A stretch of 10,143 nt of DNA from a virus. Shown here piece after piece: positions 1-10,143 of this stretch; within the stretch, counting starts at the first letter, position 1, and every line of letters begins with the position of its first letter. Under the pieces are notes generated by a model. The model did not search any database. It saw nothing but the letters and a program-made list of their open reading frames with translations, and was not told the DNA's origin. Position numbers and translations under genes: made by a program. Location: the UHGV virus genome UHGV-2042139. One strand, given 5' to 3'.

Positions 1-711
1 ATGAAAATTAGAAAAGTTGTTTTAACAAAAGCAGAGAAGTATTCTGATGAAATGGGTAATGAGATCCAGTACGAAGGTAGTTGTGACGTCAAACTAATTC
101 AGTTTAGAGGATCTAATAATAAACTTATCATTCATAAAGATGCATCATTAAAATATTTTGAGATATATTTTGACTGCAACAATGGGTATTTTGAAATTGG
201 CCCATGCCATATCGCAAACAAAGGTATACAAGCCCATATAAGAGTGGGTGAGAATTCCTCCATAAAAATAGGCTCTGATTTCACTTGCACTGGTAAAGGT
301 ATGATTTCTGCTGTAGAAAACTCAAGCATAATTATTGGCGATGACTGCATGTTTTCAAGTGGAAATGAAGTTAAAACTGATGACTCCCACCCTATTTTTA
401 GTGTAGTAACAGGTGAACGTATAAATATGCCAAAATCTATTTATATTGGAAGTCATGTCTGGGTTGGCCGCCGAGCGGCAATACTTGGTGGTGCAGAAAT
501 CGAAAGTGGTAGTGTTATTGGCTATGCAGCTGTTGTTAAAGGACACGTCCCAAATAACTCTATTGCAGCAGGAGTTCCAGCAAGAGTAATAAAAAAAGAC
601 ATTGCCTGGGAAAGACCTCATCTCTCCATACATAAACCTTATGTAAAGCCTAATAAGGACTCCATAAAAACCACAAGTGAATATTGGAACCTAACAAAAG
701 AAAAACAATAA
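1..711 (+). CDS. Hexapeptide-repeat (left-handed beta-helix) O-acetyltransferase, maltose/galactoside-acetyltransferase / NeuO-like; likely modifies a surface polysaccharide
   Basis: 236-aa ORF, ATG at 1, TAA at 709-711. Translation carries imperfect hexapeptide repeats and the typical C-terminal block (IYIGSHVWVGRRAAILGGAEIESGSVIGYAAVVKGHVPNNSIAAGVPARVIKK). The start coincides with the window edge, so the RBS and any upstream repeats cannot be seen. Confidence 0.8.
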   Translation: MKIRKVVLTKAEKYSDEMGNEIQYEGSCDVKLIQFRGSNNKLIIHKDASLKYFEIYFDCNNGYFEIGPCHIANKGIQAHIRVGENSSIKIGSDFTCTGKGMISAVENSSIIIGDDCMFSSGNEVKTDDSHPIFSVVTGERINMPKSIYIGSHVWVGRRAAILGGAEIESGSVIGYAAVVKGHVPNNSIAAGVPARVIKKDIAWERPHLSIHKPYVKPNKDSIKTTSEYWNLTKEKQ

Positions 712-745
712 AAACACACCATATATTGAACGACAAGTAAATCAC

Positions 746-790
746 ATGTCACTCCTAGAATGCGATATCTTTAAGGAGTGACATTTATCT
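746..790. terminator. Candidate bidirectional hairpin between the convergent acetyltransferase and tailspike genes
   Basis: Perfect 11-bp inverted repeat ATGTCACTCCT (746-756) / AGGAGTGACAT (774-784) with a 17-nt loop, followed by TTATCT on the + strand and a T-rich stretch on the - strand. The loop is long for a classic intrinsic terminator. Confidence 0.35.
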
Positions 791-866
791 ATAACAAATT
801 ACTAAAACACCCAAAAAACATAGACTTCAATTGGTAATATTGAGACTTAAGGTGTCAGTAAAATAG

Positions 867-3599
867 TTAATTTGCAAGCTTATTTTCCAGTTCTTCAATC
901 CTCTTTATAATATTTTTCTGACGTATACCTAATGCAGCAATCATTAGATACTGTAATTCATCATTTCTGAATGCATAGCGTTCTCCTGCTTCATGCGTAA
1001 TAGTTATAGCCTCACGAACAAGGTTACCTTCATCATCATAAACAGCTGGATCTGTATCTGTATATGCATCCCATCTGTCATAGCAGATCGCTCCGTATTT
1101 AAATGGATCAAGTCCATTCTCTCTGAATATTTCCATTGCCCGTTGCACCGTAAGTCCGGCATGAAGTCTGGCATCAGCTCCCTTATTTTTTACACTATCA
1201 AGCCATTGATAAAAACCAATTTCATCAACAAGAGCTAACCCAACCGCCTGCTCTTTATCGGAAAGAGTTCTGACTTCCGTTTTCTCTGTTGCATCAGATG
1301 TATTTATAGTTGCAGTCCCTGCGTAGACCTGAGAAAAGCGGTTAACGGACCTTCCAAGTGATACCTGGTTATCAGTTGTTGGCCTTAATGTCGTCGTCGC
1401 CCATGTCGATGTAGTATCTTTAGTCGCAGAAAATACTGTTACATTCCCCTGCTTAAGTCTGACGACACCTCCATCTGTAGAGGCAAGTATCAACTCACCA
1501 GCCGCAGATGGACAATCAGCAGCATGGATATCAATATAAGCACCACCCGCAGTATTCCCATCTTTAGAACGGAACTGCATACCTCGAAAGTTTGAGTCGA
1601 ATACTGCTTTCGTACTTACCCATGAATTATTGTCATGTCCGTAATCTGTATCAAACAGGTTAAGGTTATTTCCATAATTCAACTCGAGGGATTTGGTATA
1701 CTCTCCAATGGCTTCGTCAAATATCGCAATAGTAAATGAACCGTGCTCACGGTTAAAGGCGATATCAGTTCCAGCATAATATTGATGCGCGGTTCCGGTA
1801 TACGGATCGGATTCTGCACCATGCACTGGATGGTTGCCAAGAATATCAGACAGGTTTGCTATTCCAAACAGATGCTTATTTCTGCGAGTATAATCACCTG
1901 ATTTATATGTTGCGCCTGAATCCCATTCACCACTTGTCGCTGCAAGCGATGTTTTTAACCAATAAGACCTGTTTGTCGGAAGATTTCCCTTGTTATCACC
2001 AGTAACAATACTTACCCAATTTTTACCACGATGGCTTACAACATCCCCTGCGCTTTTCCATACATCCATAGCACCACAGACAAGTTCATCACCTCTTATT
2101 GCCAGCCCTTCAGGCTCAAAGCTAACCGGAACTCCGATTTTAGAGTCAGAACCATTTAACTGAGTCTCTGTATAAAGTGATGCGGCAAGTGATACAGGAA
2201 ATGAACGTATTAGCGTACCACCCATATCATAAATCTGTACTGTCCTTACGCATCTTGCAGGAACGCCACCCCAAATTGTGTAAATATATCTGCTATCTGA
2301 TGTAATACCCTGAAGTGTTGCACCATACTGACCTTTACCACGGACAAGTGGAACAGGACCATTAATCGGTCTAACTTTCATTGGGTTAGAAGAAGATTCC
2401 ACTTCTTTGCGATCATATACGTATAAAAAGCGGCCAGTCCCAGCGTTTGATGTCGCAATTAATATGACATATCGCCCATCATTAGATACACAAATACTTG
2501 CCCGCTGCGCAAGGTTAATCAGATTATTATCACCCGGCTCACCAAATACTCGGTAATGAGTTATATCTTCAGCAGATGTTGATGCCCCTTTCCATTTTGT
2601 CTTTGAATACCCCTTCCCTCCTAGAGAGGAACCAGTCTCAGCAATTGTTGTTGTAAACAGATATAGTTCACCGTTCTCTATTGTGGCAGAAAGATCTGAA
2701 CCGTGACCAAGAGGCAATGGCTCTGTAAATGTCACAACATAAAGAGTTGAACCATCGCTTGTATAGTGCCACTCACTGATCCTTGTGAGGGTGTCCGTTC
2801 CCCAGTTAGAACCTCCAACCTGTTGAGTGATAAAAACCTTCTCAATACCTTCATGCCTTACACAAGCTATTCCCTGCAATGCATTTTGTGCATTCGCATA
2901 TATAGTTGGCGCATTGATATCATCACCAAAATTCAGGGTCGCAAGTTTTCTTTGTCCAATGGAGAAACTTTGCATCGGCGGATTAACAGAAATGCGAACA
3001 CCATTACTGATTAGAACACCATCACCGGAGAAGCGTGAAATATCTATTTTCGATGCATCAACTATAAACTCACCAGAAGGCACATGAACCAAACCACTAT
3101 TTCCTGCGCTAGATGCGGCGTCAAGAAAAGCCTGTGTTGAATCTCTATTCCCAGAGTCATCCGCCCCCCACCCGCGAACGTCTTTATCATCCCGCCATCG
3201 TGCAATCTGTAATTCAGGGTATTTTTTAGCACCATCAGGATCTTCTAATTGCTGCCGTAACTGATCCGGGTCATACTTCAGCACATTCGGAAAATAGAAC
3301 TGCTGCGTACCATAAGCATCGTACACAGCCATAGAGTGTCCTTTCACAGTAACGAATTTGGCAATCTGTCCGTTATATACAGGATATCCAGCAGCATTGA
3401 TAACGATTGGTTGCGAAACAGGAACGTGAGAACCATCTTCATTCTCTACATAAACCTGAATCTGGTTTTCAGGATTTACAGGGTCAGTGTCAATTTTACC
3501 GATATAAATTTTTCCATTAGCTACGGCTTTAAAAGAACGAGCCATAGTGAAGAGTTGAGAAGGCATCCCAATTACAACATTTGGAGTTATATCAGGCAT
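867..3599 (-). CDS. Phage tailspike protein: P22 gp9-like N-terminal head-binding domain, divergent central receptor-binding/depolymerase body, C-terminal intramolecular-chaperone-like (peptidase S74-like) domain with terminal coiled coil
   Basis: N-terminus [59 protein letters not shown]...VLKYDPDQ matches the P22 tailspike head-binding domain ([43 protein letters not shown]...). C-terminal stretch [34 protein letters not shown]...[11 protein letters not shown]...IEELENKL resembles the autocleaving chaperone domain of endosialidase-type tailspikes, as recalled from memory. Start chosen at the ATG at 3599 (AGGA 8 nt upstream); an alternative ATG lies at 3608, and the ORF-track start at 3752 is an upstream extension with no homology. 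Confidence 0.85.
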
Positions 3600-3916
3600 A
3601 TTAGTCATCCTGTTTGAAAATTTAGATATTGAAGAAAACGGAATGACTGCAGACAAAGATGCAATTGTTTTGAAAAATAATCTTCTATTCACTTTAAAAC
3701 TATGCAACATGAACAAAACAATTATTTTACAACAAGCAAGAATCTTGATCAACAGACATATGCTTTATGCGTTTAATGCGTCACTTAAAAATAACAAGTA
3801 CTACTTTTATTCCTATCGTCCATGATTTTCATTTTCAAATATTATTAAATAACAATTCCTATTTATAATATCTGTCATTTAATCTGCTCCAGATAAAAGG
3901 AATCGCTGCAGCATTG

Positions 3917-3961
3917 CCACAGTGATGCATTATTAATCAAACAAAGAGACCACAGTGGTCT
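3917..3961. promoter_or_regulatory. Candidate operator region: 15-bp perfect palindrome plus an upstream CACAGTG core copy, in the tailspike-mnt intergenic region
   Basis: AGACCACAGTGGTCT at 3947-3961 is a perfect 7+1+7 palindrome about 70 bp upstream of the mnt ATG. A second copy of CCACAGTG lies at 3917-3924, with centres 33 bp apart. Promoter hexamers could not be assigned confidently by eye. Confidence 0.35.
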
Positions 3962-4024
3962 TATTGAGGATGCAACCAGCAGATAATAAGATGCCGATCC
4001 ACTCACAAAAGCGAGGCATCAAGA

Positions 4025-4276
4025 ATGGGAAGAGATGACCCGCAATTTAATCTGCGGCTACCTTACGAATTAAAGGAAAAACTAAAACAGCGAGCCAAAT
4101 CCAATTGCCGCTCTCTTAATTCAGAATTAGTTCAGATAGTGACTGATGCTGTATCAAAGCCATCCAAAATTTCAGGCTATCGAGACGATGCGGAACGAAT
4201 CGCTGATGAGCAGTCCGAACTTGTTAAGAAGATGGTGTTTGATACGCTGAAAGATTTGTACAAAAAACCCACCTGA
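4025..4276 (+). CDS. mnt: Mnt-type ribbon-helix-helix repressor (Arc/MetJ superfamily) with C-terminal tetramerisation coiled coil
   Basis: 83-aa ORF with GAGG 8 nt upstream of the ATG. MGRDDPQFNLRLPYELKEKLKQRAKSNCRSLNSELVQIV...YRDDAERIADEQSELVKKMVFDTLKDLYKKPT aligns along its full length with P22 Mnt as recalled (ARDDPHFNFRMPMEVREKLKFRAEANGRSMNSELLQIV...AERLADEQSELVKKMVFDTLKDLYKKTT). The N-terminal strand reads PQFNLR, as in P22 Arc. Confidence 0.85.
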   Translation: MGRDDPQFNLRLPYELKEKLKQRAKSNCRSLNSELVQIVTDAVSKPSKISGYRDDAERIADEQSELVKKMVFDTLKDLYKKPT

Positions 4277-4291
4277 TGGTGGGTTCCATTT
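4261..4291. terminator. Bidirectional intrinsic terminator shared by the convergent mnt and lipoprotein genes
   Basis: Perfect 8-bp stem AACCCACC (4266-4273) / GGTGGGTT (4278-4285) with loop TGAT. It is flanked by an A-run on the left, giving a U-tract for the minus-strand transcript, and by CCATTTATT on the right. The mnt stop codon TGA sits in the loop. Confidence 0.6.
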
Positions 4292-4292
4292 A

Positions 4293-4712
4293 TTAGTCTT
4301 GCTTTGTGGACGGTATAAGTGATGCATTTGCCTCTTTTGGCTTCAAGGTATACATTCCACCATTAAATGGATCTACAGCAAGCCAACCAATTAACCCACC
4401 AAACACAAGGTTCCCACCAATATACCAACCATTAGCATTGGCTTTGATTGGCAGGGTAACTGGTTCATACCCATCCTTCTCCATAGTGATCTGGTAGCTC
4501 TTTTTGCCAAAATAGCTACCATCTGACTTGGCGAGCGTTACACCTTGTGGGGTCTTACCTTGCGCAACAATCACACCTGACTCATCTTTTACCTTAAAGC
4601 TCGCGCCAGAAGGATTGCTGTTCACTTGCACAAGTTGCGTTTCATCACCAACAATAGTTGCGCACCCAGATAACATGATAACGCCAGCAACGACGCTAAT
4701 AATCCTCTTCAT
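4293..4712 (-). CDS. Lipoprotein with PEGA-like beta domain and C-terminal glycine-zipper segment; function unknown (candidate superinfection-exclusion or envelope protein)
   Basis: Signal peptide with lipobox (MKRIISVVAGVIMLSGC), then a PEGA-like pattern (VQVNSNPSGASFKVKDESGVIVAQGKTPQGVTL...GYEPVTLPIKA) and GGNLVFGGLIGWL. Start taken at the internal ATG at 4712 (lipoprotein signal begins there); the ORF-track start at 4745 would add an acidic 11-residue extension. Ends 7 nt before the terminator hairpin. Confidence 0.7.
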   Translation of the reverse strand: MKRIISVVAGVIMLSGCATIVGDETQLVQVNSNPSGASFKVKDESGVIVAQGKTPQGVTLAKSDGSYFGKKSYQITMEKDGYEPVTLPIKANANGWYIGGNLVFGGLIGWLAVDPFNGGMYTLKPKEANASLIPSTKQD

Positions 4713-4830
4713 ATCAATTTCCATATTTAAAAAAAACGGAAACATCCTAATGACAAATCATTCAAATGTGAAGTAGGCAAAAGATGTTTACTTTTTTCAT
4801 GGTATCCTGCTCAAAACTAAGGAGGTTGGT

Positions 4831-5154
4831 GTGTATACAACAGTTATCGTGATAGCTATCGCACTCATTGTGGTTCAGTACCAACTGGCATCTTTAAAAC
4901 AAAAGATATCTGACCTCAAGACTGAGAACGAAGCACTTAAAAACTCAATAAAAGATGAGAAGAACAAACTATCATTCACTATATCTGATATTGAGCAATC
5001 CATTGAAATTATTGAGAATAATATTAACAGACTAAAAAAAGAAGATATTCATGAAATCAATGACAATATCAAGGATTTGAAATCTTGGCTTAGGAATGTA
5101 GGGCAAATCGCCACATCAACACGAGATAAGCTCAATCCATCCATGGATGATTAA
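4831..5154 (+). CDS. Small membrane-anchored coiled-coil protein (N-terminal transmembrane helix, then heptad-rich domain); function unknown
   Basis: GTG start preceded by a strong SD, AAGGAGGT, at 4819-4826. N-terminal hydrophobic helix TTVIVIAIALIVVQY followed by a Lys/Glu-rich coiled-coil-like sequence. Markedly more AT-rich than its neighbours. Its TAA stop (5152-5154) directly abuts the stop of the convergent ORF (5155-5157). Confidence 0.6.
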   Translation: MYTTVIVIAIALIVVQYQLASLKQKISDLKTENEALKNSIKDEKNKLSFTISDIEQSIEIIENNINRLKKEDIHEINDNIKDLKSWLRNVGQIATSTRDKLNPSMDD

Positions 5155-5910
5155 TTACTCCTGTGCTATTCCGCTTAGCGACGCTACAATGCCAGCCCTC
5201 GCTAAGCGATTGAACTCTTCGTTTCCAACTGCATCACGTATTGCTTTTACGGCGGCTTTATTTGCCATAAATCTGCGTTCCGCCGCCGCTAATGCTTCTT
5301 TACTTCCGCCAGCTCTTACTGCTTTCGTGGCTTCCTGAACTGCTTTCTCTATCGCATATCGACCGCTACGCGTGGTGGCAATTTTAGATACAGCGCCTTT
5401 TAACCCGGCGCCAACTAAAGCACCTGCGGCAGCGCCTGCAATGCCCCCTCCTGCTCCACCAACAATGGCACCTGATGTTGAGTTGGCAATTGCATTTAAC
5501 ACTGTTGATGTGACGTTGGATAAACCGGCATCCAGATCGCGTAGTACATTGGCAGTTCTCCCTGTTCTTTCAATATACTGCTGAGGTTTCACTGCTGCTC
5601 TTGCAAGAGTGCCATATGCATCAGCAATTCTTCCAAGTTCTGAGGAATATCGGCTAATGGCTTTTACATTTTGTGGAGTGAGTATCTCTGCGATATGGTT
5701 AATTCCTGCTGCATCAGCTTTGCCACCACGTACACCATGCGAGATAGCATCTTGCAACATTGATGATATAGCAGGAACACGCTCTGATTCTGGCAGCGCG
5801 CGGATCATAGAATGGAACCCAGCAGGACCATTAAGACCTTTAATAGGATTCGACCCTAAGCGAGATATGCCATTCAAAGGAACTCGCCACAACGCGCTTG
5901 ATGATGCCAT
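5155..5910 (-). CDS. GC-rich Gly/Ala-rich hypothetical protein with glycine-zipper segment; possibly a 3' remnant of a larger virion (ejection-protein-like) gene or an intact membrane-active protein
   Basis: Uninterrupted 251-codon ORF containing GAIVGGAGGGIAGAAAGALVGAGLKGA. No convincing SD before the ATG at 5910. The opposite strand is broken into three same-frame ORFs with low-complexity Pro/Ala translations, consistent with the minus strand being the coding one. GC-rich sequence inflates ORF length, so confidence is moderate. Confidence 0.45.
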   Translation of the reverse strand: MASSSALWRVPLNGISRLGSNPIKGLNGPAGFHSMIRALPESERVPAISSMLQDAISHGVRGGKADAAGINHIAEILTPQNVKAISRYSSELGRIADAYGTLARAAVKPQQYIERTGRTANVLRDLDAGLSNVTSTVLNAIANSTSGAIVGGAGGGIAGAAAGALVGAGLKGAVSKIATTRSGRYAIEKAVQEATKAVRAGGSKEALAAAERRFMANKAAVKAIRDAVGNEEFNRLARAGIVASLSGIAQE

Positions 5911-5959
5911 TCACCAAGCCAAATACGTTTCAGCGATCTGGAAAAAGTTAGCTAAATAA
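5873..5959 (+). pseudogene. Possible 3'-terminal remnant of a DnaQ-like (DEDDh) 3'-5' exonuclease gene
   Basis: Plus-strand translation ends ...FKGTRHNALDDAIHQAKYVSAIWKKLAK, stopping at 5957-5959, 16 nt before the SD/ATG of the next operon gene. HNALDDA resembles the Exo III motif (H-x-A-x-x-D) of DEDDh exonucleases. No motifs I or II upstream. Partly antisense to the first codons of the 5155..5910 ORF. Confidence 0.2.
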
Positions 5960-5975
5960 TCAACAGGAGAAAACC

Positions 5976-6269
5976 ATGCCAGCGCCTCTGTATGGTGCGG
6001 ACGACGCGCGCCGCTGTTCCGGCAATTCCGTATCGGAGGTGCTGGATAAATTCAGAAAAAACTACGACCGGATAATGTCGCTACCGCAGGAAACGAAAGA
6101 GGAAAAGGAATTTCGCCACTGTATATGGCTTGCAGAGAAAGAAGAACGCGAGCGAATTTACCAGACATCAATCCAACCATTCCGCAAAGCCACATATACC
6201 CACTTCCCTGAAATTGACCCGCGCCTGCGTAATTACCGCTCACGTTATGGCGCTATCAGTAATGACTGA
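5976..6269 (+). CDS. Hypothetical protein, first gene of an early-region-type small-gene operon
   Basis: 97-aa ORF, ATG at 5976 with SD AGGAGA 5 nt upstream. No family recognised from the translation. Confidence 0.6.
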
Positions 6270-6279
6270 GGAATTTACC

Positions 6280-6444
6280 ATGAGAGGACTTGCATACAAT
6301 CCCGGCATTCTTCCGGCAGAAATGATTATTCGCCAACGCGTAAAGCCAATGCCATCGAGAGAGGAATTGCTTAAGAGAAATTCTTTTCCATCAGTAAATC
6401 AAAACAAATATCTGAATGCGATGTGGCGGAGTGGGAAGAAATGA
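6280..6444 (+). CDS. Small hypothetical protein (54 aa)
   Basis: ATG at 6280 with SD GAGGA 7 nt upstream, immediately after the stop of the preceding gene. The longer ORF-track version from 6130 overlaps the upstream gene out of frame and is rejected. Confidence 0.5.
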
Positions 6445-6962
6445 AACAAATGTCACTAATTGAGATGGATGGATTTCTGAAAGGTAAATGCATCCCACGA
6501 GATTTAAAGGTTAACGAAACAAACGCTGAATATCTTGTCCGTAAGTTCGGTGAACTTGAATCAAAACTCAACGAGCAGCGTGAGTATTACGAGGGCGTTA
6601 TCTCGGATGGGAGTAAGCGTATTGCTGAACTGGAGAAAAGCGAAGAGCAACTCATCAACGAGCTTGACCATGCTGAGTATGCTTTAGCTGATATGTACTT
6701 TGCAGCAACCGGGGATAGGTCTGAGTGGAGTAACTGTTTCAGTTTTTCAGATGCTGTCGATGCCGTGGTTGACAGAATTGCTGATTTAGAAGCTAAACAG
6801 CCATCGCCAGTAGTGCCGGAAGGACTGGTTAAAGCAGTGCGCTTCTATGAGCAGGTAAAACGTGAGAATCCGCCAGCCGAAACCGGAGCATGGAAAGACG
6901 CTGTTTACTGGGTGCTCAAAGAGGCTTGTCAGGTTGTAAACACTGGCATCAAAGGAGACTGA
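6441..6962 (+). CDS. Hypothetical protein with central coiled-coil region (173 aa)
   Basis: ATG at 6441 overlaps the upstream stop (ATGA at 6441-6444), indicating translational coupling. The ORF-track start at 6423 is a GTG. No family recognised. Confidence 0.6.
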
Positions 6963-6963
6963 T

Positions 6964-7173
6964 ATGGCTATTGCCGCAAGTTACACCATGCATCTCTATT
7001 GTGACTGCCGTCAGTGCACGGAAGGTGTATATCCAGTGCCAGACTTCGGTGAGTATATCGGTACGTCATGGGCTGGCTGTGCAAAAGAGGCGCGCAAGGA
7101 TGGCTGGCGAATAAGCAAAGACAAAACGCGTGCTTTTGCGCCCGGGCATAAAGTTTTGAGGATTAACAAATGA
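6964..7173 (+). CDS. Small Cys-containing hypothetical protein (69 aa), possible metal-binding
   Basis: ATG at 6964, one nucleotide after the upstream stop, with SD GGAG 6 nt upstream. Contains CDCRQC plus a further Cys. Confidence 0.55.
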   Translation: MAIAASYTMHLYCDCRQCTEGVYPVPDFGEYIGTSWAGCAKEARKDGWRISKDKTRAFAPGHKVLRINK

Positions 7174-7904
7174 CCACTATAACCAAAGAGCGACTGCTGA
7201 CAATCAAGCAGTGGCGCGAAACATACGGACCGGGTAGCAACGTTGTACTGCCAGCAGAAGAAGCGGAAGAACTGGCACGGATTGCTCTGGCATCGCTGGA
7301 AGCAAAACCAATAGGTGCATTCCACATTGCAGAACAGCAAGTTGACGGCACAAGTGACTACCTCAAGGATGGAGAATGGCCTATTGATAATGGAATTATT
7401 GAGGTCTACGCCGCTCCCCCCGTTCCAGTAGTACCGGAAGAAAAACCAATGCCTAACGCTCTAAGCATGCTTGAAAGAGAGATCACACAACTGATTGGTG
7501 ATGCGCAGGAAGCCACTGTTACTGGCTATGAGTTAATCGCTGAAGCTTGGCGTTTGATGGATGGACAAGACCCTAAAACCAGCGATTGGCATAGCAAGGC
7601 TTCGAAGTATTTAAATTCCAATATTGTAGAAAAAGTTGATGATGACCGTATTGATGCAATTAAGGCTGTTTTGCGTAGACTGGCTGGCAACTCTCCGGTA
7701 ACTCCGGATGGTTGGATAAGCTGTAGTGAGCGAATGCCAGATGATGGTCAGCACGTAATTATTTTATGTGATGGCGCATTCGTTCTTTATGCGCAATATC
7801 GAGACGGTGAGTTTTTTGATGTTGTCCGCAATGGTGAGGAGTTCTTCGAAACGCAGAGCCGCAATGTAACCCACTGGATGCCGCTACCAGAACCGCCGCT
7901 CTGA
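7170..7904 (+). CDS. Prophage early-region protein with DUF551-like C-terminal domain
   Basis: ATG at 7170 overlaps the upstream stop (ATGA), with SD GAGGA 8 nt upstream. The C-terminus DGWISCSERMPDDGQHVIILCDG...VTHWMPLPEPP matches the DUF551 signature as I recall it. Confidence 0.7.
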   Translation: MTTITKERLLTIKQWRETYGPGSNVVLPAEEAEELARIALASLEAKPIGAFHIAEQQVDGTSDYLKDGEWPIDNGIIEVYAAPPVPVVPEEKPMPNALSMLEREITQLIGDAQEATVTGYELIAEAWRLMDGQDPKTSDWHSKASKYLNSNIVEKVDDDRIDAIKAVLRRLAGNSPVTPDGWISCSERMPDDGQHVIILCDGAFVLYAQYRDGEFFDVVRNGEEFFETQSRNVTHWMPLPEPPL

Positions 7905-7933
7905 TAGCGAATCTTATACATATCTTTTACATC

Positions 7934-7947
7934 AACAATATATTGTT
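7934..7947. promoter_or_regulatory. 14-bp perfect AT-rich palindrome, candidate operator upstream of the zinc-ribbon gene
   Basis: AACAATATATTGTT at 7934-7947, in the 96-bp gap between the DUF551 gene and the zinc-ribbon gene, 53 bp upstream of the ATG at 8001. Confidence 0.3.
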
Positions 7948-8000
7948 AATTTCCAATCAATGTTACGTTGTCATCTCACTCATGCTTTGGAGGTAGTGAT

Positions 8001-8180
8001 ATGTCTTGTCCAAAATGCGGTTCTGGAAATATTGCAAAAGAAAAAACAAGGCGTGGATGGTCTGGAGATTATGTGTGCAGTGATTGCGGATACAACAACT
8101 CTAAAGACGCATTTGGAATGCGCGGTAAAAACGAGTTTAGTAAAAATAATAAAGAACGCGGAAGCAACGAAAAAAGCTAA
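8001..8180 (+). CDS. Small zinc-ribbon protein (CxxC-x19-CxxC), 59 aa
   Basis: ATG at 8001 with SD GGAGG 7 nt upstream. MSCPKCGSGNIAKEKTRRGWSGDYVCSDCGYNN, then a basic tail. The ORF-track start at 7968 is a TTG. Confidence 0.55.
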   Translation: MSCPKCGSGNIAKEKTRRGWSGDYVCSDCGYNNSKDAFGMRGKNEFSKNNKERGSNEKS

Positions 8181-8243
8181 ATTATTTATTCATATATGAA
8201 AACAATGTAACCAATATTCGAATTGAAGAACTGAAAGAACACT

Positions 8244-8268
8244 AAGCCGCCTGATGGCGGTTTTTTAT
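8244..8268 (+). terminator. Rho-independent terminator ending the small-gene operon
   Basis: GC-rich stem AAGCCGCC (8244-8251) / GGCGGTTT (8256-8263) with one G-U pair, loop TGAT, then a run of T residues. Confidence 0.6.
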
Positions 8269-8280
8269 TGGAGACAAGAA

Positions 8281-8625
8281 ATGTCAGATTTGGCTATGAA
8301 GATTTTGAAATGGCAAACGACTGGCGATGTCGGCATCAGTAGCGCAACTCTTGCCTCAATCGCATGTGGACTGAAAAAGAATATCTATGGTCATCACTTC
8401 GGCGCTCCACATGACGCAGCCGATTTCCGACGATGCGTTGCACTTGTTGAGCAGATTCCAGAAATCAGAGATTCATTCGACAAGGTTGCAAAGCGCGTTC
8501 CGGCATTCAAAGGCATCCTCAACGAATGGGATTCTCTCGTTGCTCTGTTGAAGTCTGAAATGAAGATACACGGAAACAAAGCACCAGAGACTTACAGAAG
8601 AATCAGAGAACTACGCAAGGACTAA
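8281..8625 (+). CDS. Hypothetical protein (114 aa)
   Basis: ATG at 8281 with SD GGAGA 6 nt upstream, just downstream of the terminator. The ORF-track start at 8254 lies inside the hairpin and is rejected. No family recognised. Confidence 0.55.
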   Translation: MSDLAMKILKWQTTGDVGISSATLASIACGLKKNIYGHHFGAPHDAADFRRCVALVEQIPEIRDSFDKVAKRVPAFKGILNEWDSLVALLKSEMKIHGNKAPETYRRIRELRKD

Positions 8626-8746
8626 CTATGGAATCATACAGCCTCACACTCGATGAGGCCTGACAGTTTCTCAAGATCGCCAGATCTACCGCAACCGACA
8701 ATAACCGCCACTGAACGGTTTATTTCTTTATGGAGAAACCATACAA

Positions 8747-8977
8747 ATGACAATCAATATTCAGCCGATTCTAATAAACCGCGAGCGTGTTCAGGAGATG
8801 CTTGGTGGTATCTCCAGAACTACTTTTTACCGGAAGCGTAAACAGTGGGAGCAATCAGGGACACCATTCCCTCGGGAAGTGGAAGAAATCCACCCACCGA
8901 AAGGCGGCGCCCTCTTTCGCTACAAGGAAGTTATTCAGTTTTGCAAAGATAAAGGATTGATTTCCGAACACTCTTGA
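8747..8977 (+). CDS. AlpA/excisionase-family helix-turn-helix regulator (prophage regulatory protein)
   Basis: 76-aa translation ...INRERVQEMLGGISRTTFYRKRKQ...GTPFPREV...FRYKEVIQFCKDKGL fits the AlpA/Xis-type pattern (compare E. coli AlpA ...LRLPAVIQKTGMARATIYDWL...FPKK...W...EIDEWL). Its 3' end overlaps the integrase 3' end by 43 nt in convergent orientation. Confidence 0.7.
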   Translation: MTINIQPILINRERVQEMLGGISRTTFYRKRKQWEQSGTPFPREVEEIHPPKGGALFRYKEVIQFCKDKGLISEHS

Positions 8978-10143
8978 ATTTTCTTAGCCCATAATTCTGC
9001 TGCGTCCTGCTGCTCGGGGATGTAGTCATACTGGTCATAAACAGCCAGCATCCCCGTGAGCTTATGCCCGAGAATTTTCTCCGAAACATGAGGTGCTACT
9101 CCAAGTTCAGCCATTTTTGTTTTGCACGTTCTGCGCAGATCGTGCAATGACCAGTGCTCGCCCCCCATAACATCTTCTACCTGTTCTGCAATAGAAATTA
9201 GGGTGCTGGCAGACATTGGGCGATTTTCCTGTAACTTAGCCGGAGGAAATACGATTGACAGATCAGGGTATAGATCAAATACCTGCTGCAAATAATCTGC
9301 TGCGAGTTTTGAAATACCGCGAACAAATCGCTTACGCGTTTTTGAGTTCTCTTTCGGTATAGTCCATTCTCTAGACTTCAGATCAAAATCAGTCTTCTTA
9401 GCCAACCGCAATTCAACACCACGACAACCAGTTAACGCAACAATTCGAATAAACATTTTGTTTTGCCACGACATTTTCGTTTTGTCGATGGCATTCCAGA
9501 ATGCGCCTATCTCAACATCGTTAAGAAAACGTTCGCCATTATTAGGTCTACTGCCGATATCATTAATCTCAAGAAGCATCAGTGCATTTGATGTTATGCG
9601 TTTTCTGCGTAACGCATAGCGGATCACTTGCTTCATCTTCACCAGTACATTTCCCGCCTGTACGGGTGACCCACCTTTTGTTATGCGAATGAATATTTGC
9701 TCCCACTCTACAGGACTCATTTCATCTGCAATCAGCTTACCGTAATTGTCGGTGATGTGAAGTTTCAGCATCCGCTTCCAGTATTCGTACTTCACCATCT
9801 CTTTTACTGAAGGAGTATCAAACCACTCGTCAACTAGGGTACTGATGCTTGGGGAACTTGATGCAATATCTTTGGCTTTCTTCCTTTGCATGGCTGGGTC
9901 TTTACCCTTCTCCAACCACCCTTTACACTCTTCCAATGCATCGCGAGCTTCCTTAAGCGACATCTTCCCGTACGTTCCGAGCTTTAACCTGGCGGGTTTT
10001 CCATTGAAACGATAGCGGTATTGAAAGGTGATAAGTCCCTTCGGGCTGATCCTGACAGAAAGTCCGCCTCCGTCAGCTATCTCCTCAGGTCCCTCATATG
10101 CTTTTCCGGATATACGTCGCAGCTTTGTATCGTTGAGTGCCAT
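8935..10143 (-). CDS. int: Tyrosine site-specific integrase, P4-like family, with N-terminal arm-binding (DUF4102-type) domain
   Basis: 402-aa ORF. N-terminus LNDTKLRRISGKAYEGPEEIADGGGLSVRISPKGLITFQYRYRFNGKPARLKLGTY...SLKEARDA is typical of P4-type integrases. C-terminal catalytic region contains HDLRRT...LGH...AVYDQY. The start codon is the final triplet of the window, so the upstream att site and any tRNA are outside it. Confidence 0.9.
   Translation of the reverse strand: MALNDTKLRRISGKAYEGPEEIADGGGLSVRISPKGLITFQYRYRFNGKPARLKLGTYGKMSLKEARDALEECKGWLEKGKDPAMQRKKAKDIASSSPSISTLVDEWFDTPSVKEMVKYEYWKRMLKLHITDNYGKLIADEMSPVEWEQIFIRITKGGSPVQAGNVLVKMKQVIRYALRRKRITSNALMLLEINDIGSRPNNGERFLNDVEIGAFWNAIDKTKMSWQNKMFIRIVALTGCRGVELRLAKKTDFDLKSREWTIPKENSKTRKRFVRGISKLAADYLQQVFDLYPDLSIVFPPAKLQENRPMSASTLISIAEQVEDVMGGEHWSLHDLRRTCKTKMAELGVAPHVSEKILGHKLTGMLAVYDQYDYIPEQQDAAELWAKKIQECSEINPLSLQN

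Follow-up and report, generated by a model that had tools for sequence, protein, structure and literature searches.

UHGV virus genome UHGV-2042139 is a 10,143-nucleotide (nt) stretch of DNA (the window, to which all coordinates refer unless another record is named) that very probably represents a defective, or cryptic, P22-like prophage of Escherichia coli, situated in the 5′ leader of thrS and derived from a complete prophage by internal deletion. Measured between its attachment (att) cores, the element is 10,667 bp long and lies between thrS and espL1/arpB-yniD, with a net loss of ≈29 kb from a parent prophage of ≈40 kb. A first-pass annotation of the sequence had proposed that the two ends of a P22-like prophage are joined directly, and this is what we find: the late end meets the early end at 5842/5843. 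The genes it named are all present, backed by Pfam, PHROG, and PDB searches, and replication, immC, lysis, packaging, and head genes are absent both from the window and, in a longer scaffold (L010), from beyond its edges.

The deletion junction and its relatives

Judged by its sequence, the element belongs to the P22-like (Lederbergvirus-type) group. Its tailspike has the P22 type of head-binding domain, and gp16, Mnt, and Abc2 occur in P22 order; the order of gp16 fragment (a match to PF26808 as well), Mnt, and Abc2 also agrees with that of complete relatives. We mapped the breakpoint against complete and related prophages, using BLAST break points and an alignment of the window with two sister remnants, EC24 and TUM10008, both of which are complete closed genomes. 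The junction lies at 5841..5842, where the bases TA are common to both parents (2-bp microhomology). To its left is the 3′ fragment of a gp16-type DNA-transfer (ejection) gene (5155..5842, minus strand), comprising the last 228 of 719 codons and matching positions 468–666 of 668 in phrog_770. To its right is the 3′ fragment of a 3′–5′ exonuclease gene of the early-left operon (5843..5959, plus strand), comprising the last 38 of 182 codons and the stop codon (Pfam Rv2179c-like, positions 145–177 of 177). The N-terminal two thirds of gp16 are deleted, as is everything through the N-terminal part of the exonuclease, which is present as a full 182-amino acid (aa) gene in the complete prophage of E. 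coli MS 16-3 and in contigs L011, L012, and L013. Window 1–5842 is 100% identical to EC24, which then runs on into a complete 2160-bp gp16 gene, and from 5841 the window follows the 3′ part of the exonuclease gene of TUM10008; in the three-way alignment, the join falls after ...GACCTTTA with just TA in common. Because two genes are cut mid-frame at a microhomology, we read the join as a scar of illegitimate recombination and not as the boundary of an evolved module.

The same junction is found in three assemblies, L006, L010, and L014. A 43-nt sequence spanning it gave zero exact matches in a one-genome-per-species collection, and the junction was located instead via the exact fused open reading frame (ORF) in L006 and via the DUF551 protein in L010. 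In the 207-kb scaffold L010, which is identical to the window at 10,142 of 10,143 bases, the order is infC–thrS–element–espL1 fragments–yniD–ydiY–pfkB–ghoS–yniA–yniB–hxpB. Host genes thus directly flank the element, and the virion, replication, and lysis genes that would mark the window as part of an intact prophage are not found just outside it. L014 contains the whole window with two mismatches, and in L006 (a Logan contig from run ERR589844), the acyltransferase gene at the late end is followed by thrS, infC, rpmI, rplT, and pheS.

The window edges coincide with the start codons of both terminal genes, so the att repeats fall outside it. A 23-bp core, ACACGAAAGATCACATACAAAGA, is present on both sides of the element and as a single copy in the empty K-12 site. 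The 10,667-bp distance between the two cores is that measured in L010 and L014; in EC24, they lie 318–344 bp to the left of base 1 and 181–207 bp to the right of base 10143. The core starts 29 nt upstream of the thrS start codon, within the thrS mRNA leader. Att repeats and possibly a tRNA gene had been anticipated beyond the edges, and the repeats are there; a tRNA att site we rejected, the window being devoid of tRNA genes and the site being the thrS leader. The usual target of P4-type integrases, a tRNA or tmRNA 3′ end (usual, not strictly defining), is not used here.

The same site is occupied by complete prophages. E. coli MS 16-3 (NZ_CP146667.1) carries a complete P22-like prophage exactly at this position, 39,991 bp from core to core, and E4 (NZ_CP104516.1) and A26 (NZ_CP028749.1) also have complete prophages at thrS. 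At its first end, the MS 16-3 prophage encodes the acyltransferase, tailspike, ant, arc, mnt, and the ejection, tail, head, portal, terminase, lysis, Q, nin, replication, and immC functions; toward the other end, it continues with kil, Rad52, ssb, the exonuclease, abc2, DUF2737, DUF551, small genes, the xis-like gene, and an opposed integrase. It is 99.7% identical to the window over 1–3925 and 99.9% over 7680–10143. Taken together, the complete relatives resemble the window at both ends: the acyltransferase–tailspike end is 99.2–99.7% identical over 1–3925 (MS 16-3 and E4), the xis-like gene and integrase are 99.7–99.9% identical, with the integrase opposed in MS 16-3 and A26, and the early-left gene order is the same. 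They differ in having kept ≈29 kb of early, immunity, replication, lysis, and virion genes; in addition, the segment from mnt to gp16 and part of the ea region are different mosaic alleles, and MS 16-3 and E4 carry arc and ant.

Other remnants at the site have lost different parts of the same interior. The EC24 remnant (13.6 kb) retains the whole of gp16; pieces of gp20 and of a tail gene are fused there to Rad52-ssb, and a second deletion extends from the start of the exonuclease gene to window 7235; over window 7235–10143, it is 99.97% identical. In the TUM10008 remnant (12.7 kb), fragments of the coat, scaffold, and terminase genes are left, and int contains an IS1 insertion sequence (IS). 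This IS1A (L002 26119–26927) is bordered by a 9-bp duplication corresponding to window 9324–9332, and the integrase gene has been inactivated independently there. In the 4.7-kb GMF065 remnant, ISEc31 joins a truncated tailspike gene to an int stub. Contigs L011, L012, and L013 show zero substitutions relative to the window over the common stretches (up to 8.7 kb in L011) and have 500 extra bp at the junction, and in L011, L012, and L015, window 8702–9569, with the xis-like gene and the 3′ part of int, has also been lost.

These remnants share the ends of the window and, with the exception of GMF065, its host flanks. The flanks of L010, EC24, TUM10008, and L011–L013 are identical or one base different over up to 10.6 kb, and a single indel separates E4 from L010 in the compared 2.8 kb of thrS-side flank. 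These copies decayed in place within one E. coli lineage. The cut genes with their 2-bp microhomology, the complete ≈40-kb prophages at the same site, and the sister remnants with other break points provide strong support for the proposal, made in the first-pass annotation, that the element is a deletion derivative.

Origin of the remnant and rival readings

We propose that a prophage of ≈40 kb underwent a RecA-independent, microhomology-mediated deletion of ≈29 kb, which would have removed the rest of the early-left operon, immC, the replication, nin, Q, lysis, packaging, head, and tail genes, and most of the ejection genes. The close relatives suggest two steps, the first being a large deletion that fused gp16 with the spacer preceding the exonuclease gene and the second a further 500-bp loss that gave rise to the window junction. 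In L011, L012, and L013, the exonuclease gene is complete and the 500 extra bp stand at the window junction (8172–8671 in L013). The gp16 end point of this L013-type junction is the same to the base (after GACCTTTA), whereas its right-hand partner differs (EC24 coordinate 25509). Either a second 500-bp deletion started exactly at the first junction, or two events had one end in common. We looked for a hairpin or longer direct repeat behind the 500-bp deletion and found nothing convincing. Thereafter, the element would have been inherited vertically as a cryptic prophage.

Att repeats at a site used by complete relatives, as seen in near-identical contigs, and truncated genes at a deletion junction are the hallmarks of a defective prophage. 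None of the genes that a functional phage needs for packaging, head, tail, lysis, replication, or immC was detected in the window (ORF table, Pfam, and PHROG). Nothing that replication, lysis, or particle formation would require is left, so the element cannot replicate, lyse the cell, or make particles. Some activities may nonetheless persist. The NeuO-family acetyltransferase may still acetylate the capsule or O-antigen recognized by the tailspike, a form of lysogenic conversion, and Mnt may bind the palindrome AGACCACAGTGGTCT upstream of its own gene, repressing transcription toward the tailspike. Excision could in principle still occur, as int, the xis-like gene, and the two att cores have remained intact; the PL promoter, however, the normal driver of the early-left genes, has been deleted.

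Several observations count against this account. The exact 5842/5843 junction is seen in L006, L010, and L014 alone, and since these three assemblies may stem from one human-gut sample, it is possibly known from a single source. The two-step history requires the second deletion to have started exactly at the first junction, an unexplained coincidence. The flanks are inferred from near-identical contigs and not from the window's own record. Finally, the retained ORFs are all intact, which leaves room for selection on some of them; the 0–2 substitutions among copies are too few to measure it.

A different explanation for the intact ends is that the element is a domesticated, still-excisable conversion island, under selection on the acetyltransferase (and perhaps also on the tailspike, Mnt, or the lipoprotein), that flips by means of Int and the xis-like protein much like the wzy locus of Salmonella. 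In keeping with this, the window-type element has an undamaged int and xis-like gene and two intact 23-bp cores, every remnant at the site keeps the acyltransferase and all except GMF065 an intact tailspike, and Salmonella Typhimurium wzy, which lies upstream of thrS between 113-bp direct repeats, excises and re-enters (PMC12074656). Retention of the ends, however, has a geometric explanation: any single internal deletion keeps them. Sister copies, moreover, lose int or the xis-like gene by deletion (L011, L012, and L015) or have IS1 (TUM10008) or ISEc31 (GMF065) in that region, 0–2 substitutions among copies are too few to show purifying selection, and the parallel with wzy is one of geometry. 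We consider such an island unlikely. A bolder variant, which we find somewhat harder to credit, would make the remnant an intermediate, a conversion module on its way to becoming a fixed yet excisable chromosomal surface-polysaccharide locus that switches O-acetylation of the tailspike's own receptor; wzy (rfc) would then be the end state at the same att site.

The first-pass annotation had also raised the possibility of a compact island with the tailspike and a receptor-modifying enzyme as cargo. In its fullest form, this would be a satellite of the P4 or phage-inducible chromosomal island (PICI) type, mobilized by a helper P22-like phage, and we regard it as highly improbable. The element is small, its P4-type integrase is opposed to the neighboring genes, and the head-binding domain of the tailspike would suit any P22-like virion. 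Against this, a search of all ORFs with Pfam, PHROG, and NCBIfam found no primase, replication, capsid-remodeling, or packaging gene or signal, two truncated phage genes make up the center of the element, and what sets the relatives apart from one another is random deletion and the insertion of IS elements. Complete 40-kb prophages, too, use this integrase, in this orientation. The opposed, P4-type integrase to which the annotation drew attention is therefore real but no peculiarity of the remnant, being the native arrangement of the integration module in complete prophages too. It is scarcely credible that the window was cut from an intact prophage or that an assembly error fused its two prophage ends: the window's edges at gene starts do hide the flanks, and ea genes, which recur among lambdoid prophages, interrupt short-read assemblies (L006 stops at them), but three assemblies from different pipelines have the same junction, a 2-bp overlap is too short for a false de Bruijn join, L010 is uninterrupted from infC through the element to past hxpB, and the closed genomes EC24 and TUM10008 carry comparable remnants at the same site.

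The remnant is an ordinary cryptic prophage, and the evidence rules against a purpose-built mobile island. The suggestion that it "kept only conversion and exclusion functions" was overstated; ≈3 kb of ea and abc2 genes, Mnt, int, and the xis-like gene are retained as well, and any exclusion function would be hypothetical. Defective prophages are common, and no new principle emerges from this one. Its value is that it belongs to a natural series, mostly from one E. coli lineage, that leads from 40-kb complete prophages through remnants of 13.6, 12.7, 10.7, and ≈9.8 kb to a 4.7-kb stub. The series displays base by base how a prophage is dismantled from the middle outward by illegitimate deletions and IS insertions, with the att-adjacent conversion gene persisting longest. 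It also documents an integration module aimed at the thrS translational operator that rebuilds this operator with a phage-borne copy.

Retained genes and the thrS-leader site

The late, thrS-side end begins with a hexapeptide-repeat (left-handed β-helix) O-acyltransferase of the NeuO family (1..711, plus strand; Pfam Hexapep), located in the lysogenic-conversion position adjoining the thrS-side att site. Its best solved relative is NeuO, the O-acetyltransferase of K1 polysialic acid (PDB 3JQY, E = 2.7e-32), followed by OatWY (2WLC, E = 5.1e-25), and it is 39% identical over 174 aa to neuO of phage CUS-3; the hexapeptide fold, combined with similarity to NeuO and OatWY, places it in the NeuO-type family at the level of sequence. 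The conversion enzyme is thus a cytoplasmic NeuO-family acetyltransferase rather than one of the membrane Oac or GtrABC type. The window contains none of the 5′ heptanucleotide (AAGACTC) phase-variation repeats, of which CUS-3 has 19 copies.

The neighboring tailspike gene (867..3599, minus strand) is intact and encodes 910 aa, the length also annotated in EC24, TUM10008, and MS 16-3. The protein comprises a P22-type head-binding domain, a central receptor-binding part, and a C-terminal intramolecular (endosialidase-type) chaperone (Pfam Peptidase_S74). The Head_binding match (E = 1.8e-65) spans the complete 113-position profile, and in the PDB, similarity to the P22 and Sf6 tailspikes covers the first ≈117 residues. 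The central part is closest to phages Gally and vB_EcoP-683R2 (45%) and distantly related to the neck appendage of Bacillus phage GA1 (29%); it is not an endosialidase.

Next to it is the immI region with the Mnt repressor gene (4025..4276, plus strand; Pfam Arc, 4.4e-21, and Repressor_Mnt, 2.2e-18). Arc and ant are absent after mnt, as in phage epsilon34, to which window 4178–5842 is 98.4% identical; because they are absent, transcription that enters the tailspike gene may be under the direct control of Mnt, resembling an epsilon34-type immI. The stretch that separates mnt from the tailspike gene contains, 64 bp ahead of mnt, the perfect 15-bp palindrome AGACCACAGTGGTCT (3947..3961), read directly from the sequence and also flagged as a stem, which is a likely candidate for a variant Mnt operator. 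The P22 Mnt operator (Omnt) itself is absent from the window even at 3 mismatches, a different palindrome being present. Mnt is followed by a predicted 139-aa lipoprotein (4293..4712, minus strand) with a lipobox (LSGC), a full-length match to phrog_6823 (1.9e-86), and a weak PEGA match, the gene for which holds the position of sieA in P22. The last gene before the gp16 fragment (4831..5154, plus strand) encodes a 107-aa protein with an N-terminal hydrophobic helix and a coiled coil (phrog_5962, 1.4e-58; in Pfam, coiled-coil noise alone).

On the early side, the exonuclease fragment is followed by a run of genes on the plus strand. These encode the Abc2 anti-RecBCD protein (5976..6269; Pfam Anti-RecBCD_p2, 2.5e-62, full length), a DUF2737 protein (6280..6444; Pfam DUF2737, 3.3e-30; also a gene call in L011), a 173-aa Ead/Ea22-like protein (6441..6962; weak Ead_Ea22 match, several PHROGs, and a gene call in L010), a 69-aa protein (6964..7173; phrog_926, 7.8e-37), and a 244-aa DUF551 protein (7170..7904; Pfam DUF551, 1.6e-21). 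Farther along are a 59-aa zinc-ribbon protein that is weakly Lar-like (8001..8180; weak zinc-ribbon and Lar matches, phrog_2945, length as annotated in relatives) and a 114-aa protein (8281..8625; phrog_1229, 9.2e-52). All are classed as early-left genes. Scans of the window for promoters and terminators returned sites no more frequently than in shuffled sequence and were not used.

The integration module consists of a 76-aa helix-turn-helix (HTH) protein and the integrase. The former (8747..8977, plus strand) has weak matches to HTH_23 (0.0045) and phrog_4745 ("DNA binding protein," 1.8e-6), was unmatched in NCBIfam (which added nothing for the lipoprotein or tailspike either), and is linked to int homologues in other genera. 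A small HTH protein is indeed found in the xis position, as the first-pass annotation had it; its assignment as an excisionase, from weak matches and position, is putative. The 3′ end of the gene overlaps that of int by 43 bp, convergently. The P4-type tyrosine integrase (8935..10143, minus strand) is intact at 402 aa and is transcribed toward the early genes, convergently with them. It contains Arm-DNA-bind_3 (PF13356, residues 3–90, 1.9e-20) and Phage_integrase (PF00589, residues 206–371, 1.1e-17) domains, and the translation includes the motifs expected for the catalytic R...HxxR...Y residues (TGCRGVE, HDLRRT, LGH, and AVY). The xis–int stretch (8747–10143) is 99.9% identical in DNA to the complete prophages of MS 16-3 and A26, and the int–xis segment is present in 75 of 5426 complete E. 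coli genomes, with one copy in each. Among deposited phages, the nearest relative of the integrase is that of Salmonella phage Oslo (75% protein identity).

The att site corresponds to the thrS leader, which is the operator for translational control of threonyl-tRNA synthetase. The EC24 element is bordered by an imperfect direct repeat of ≈110 bp (L001 14657–14766 and 28759–28867), corresponding to 235–344 bp left of base 1 and 181–289 bp right of base 10143, and to L005 4600–4710 in the empty K-12 site. Relative to the empty site, the thrS-proximal sequence is bacterial up to ACACGAAAGATCACATACAAAGA, which is identical in all three sequences. Past this stretch, the thrS side carries a copy that came with the phage and is 86% identical to the following ≈85 bp of the thrS upstream region, and the authentic bacterial continuation is found past the integrase. 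The phage thus brings its own copy of the upstream leader, giving the lysogen's thrS a hybrid operator and presumably a phage-borne promoter. The sequence GUGAUCUUUCGUGUGGGUCAC we take to be the domain-2 hairpin of the published thrS operator, with which the 23-bp core overlaps. When folded, the native and hybrid leaders give the same long upstream hairpin (L001 14626–14773, minus strand, and L005 4569–4715, minus strand; two sequences), which the phage copy preserves: one A-U pair has become U-A by a compensatory change, and two other pairs have become G-U. These hairpin-preserving changes, seen in a comparison of two sequences, suggest selection on the phage-borne operator copy. Rfam gave no match in the window or the thrS-side att region, and there is no curated family there for the thrS operator or a P22 sar-type RNA.

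A 20-nt att core is conserved beside thrS across Enterobacterales (34 loci). A second copy of the core adjoins an int homologue (46–89% identical) in Citrobacter sp. NCU1 (L036/L045), Escherichia sp. E1V33 (L039/L042), and Superficieibacter sp. 1612_C1 (L024/L028), and in Citrobacter, a P22-type head-binding domain is encoded ≈3.5 kb from thrS. With a second core and an int homologue in three other species, this thrS-leader integration module is thus in use across several genera.

Comparison with known systems

The cryptic prophages of E. coli K-12 (such as DLP12, Rac, Qin, and CPS-53) are integrated lambdoid genomes from which deletions and IS insertions have removed the lytic modules but spared int and a handful of accessory genes. 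Compared with them, the window remnant is much younger: it is near-identical to complete relatives, its ORFs are intact, and it occurs in few genomes.

The closest described analogue of the conversion end is CUS-3, a K1-specific P22-like phage with neuO. In both, a hexapeptide O-acetyltransferase gene adjoins a tailspike gene whose product has a C-terminal chaperone, and the region from Mnt to gp16 is related. CUS-3 differs in being a complete phage, in the phase-variable AAGACTC repeats of its neuO, and in its endosialidase tailspike, which has an unrelated central part. Its int, moreover, lies beside neuO at the same prophage end (attL–int–neuO–tailspike; L016 1–5471), and attP is therefore placed differently relative to int than in P22 and the window element.

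A full-text literature search found no account of E. coli prophages at thrS, and the one relevant paper concerned wzy of S. Typhimurium. This gene (rfc, encoding the O-antigen polymerase) excises reversibly as a circle by a mechanism unknown to the authors of that study; the 113-bp repeats take in the thrS promoter region, and losing the thrS-side repeat impairs growth (PMC12074656). In geometry, which is what we compared rather than sequence, the two loci are alike, with a surface-polysaccharide gene nearest thrS and a repeat of ≈110 bp on either side, which in the E. coli element consists of thrS leader. The wzy segment differs in being 2.6 kb long, in having no phage gene or integrase, and in having identical repeats. 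By analogy, the wzy locus may be all that is left of a prophage that once occupied the thrS-leader att site. If so, the E. coli series would offer a testable origin for the excisable wzy locus of Salmonella, the geometry of which is that expected at the end of such decay.

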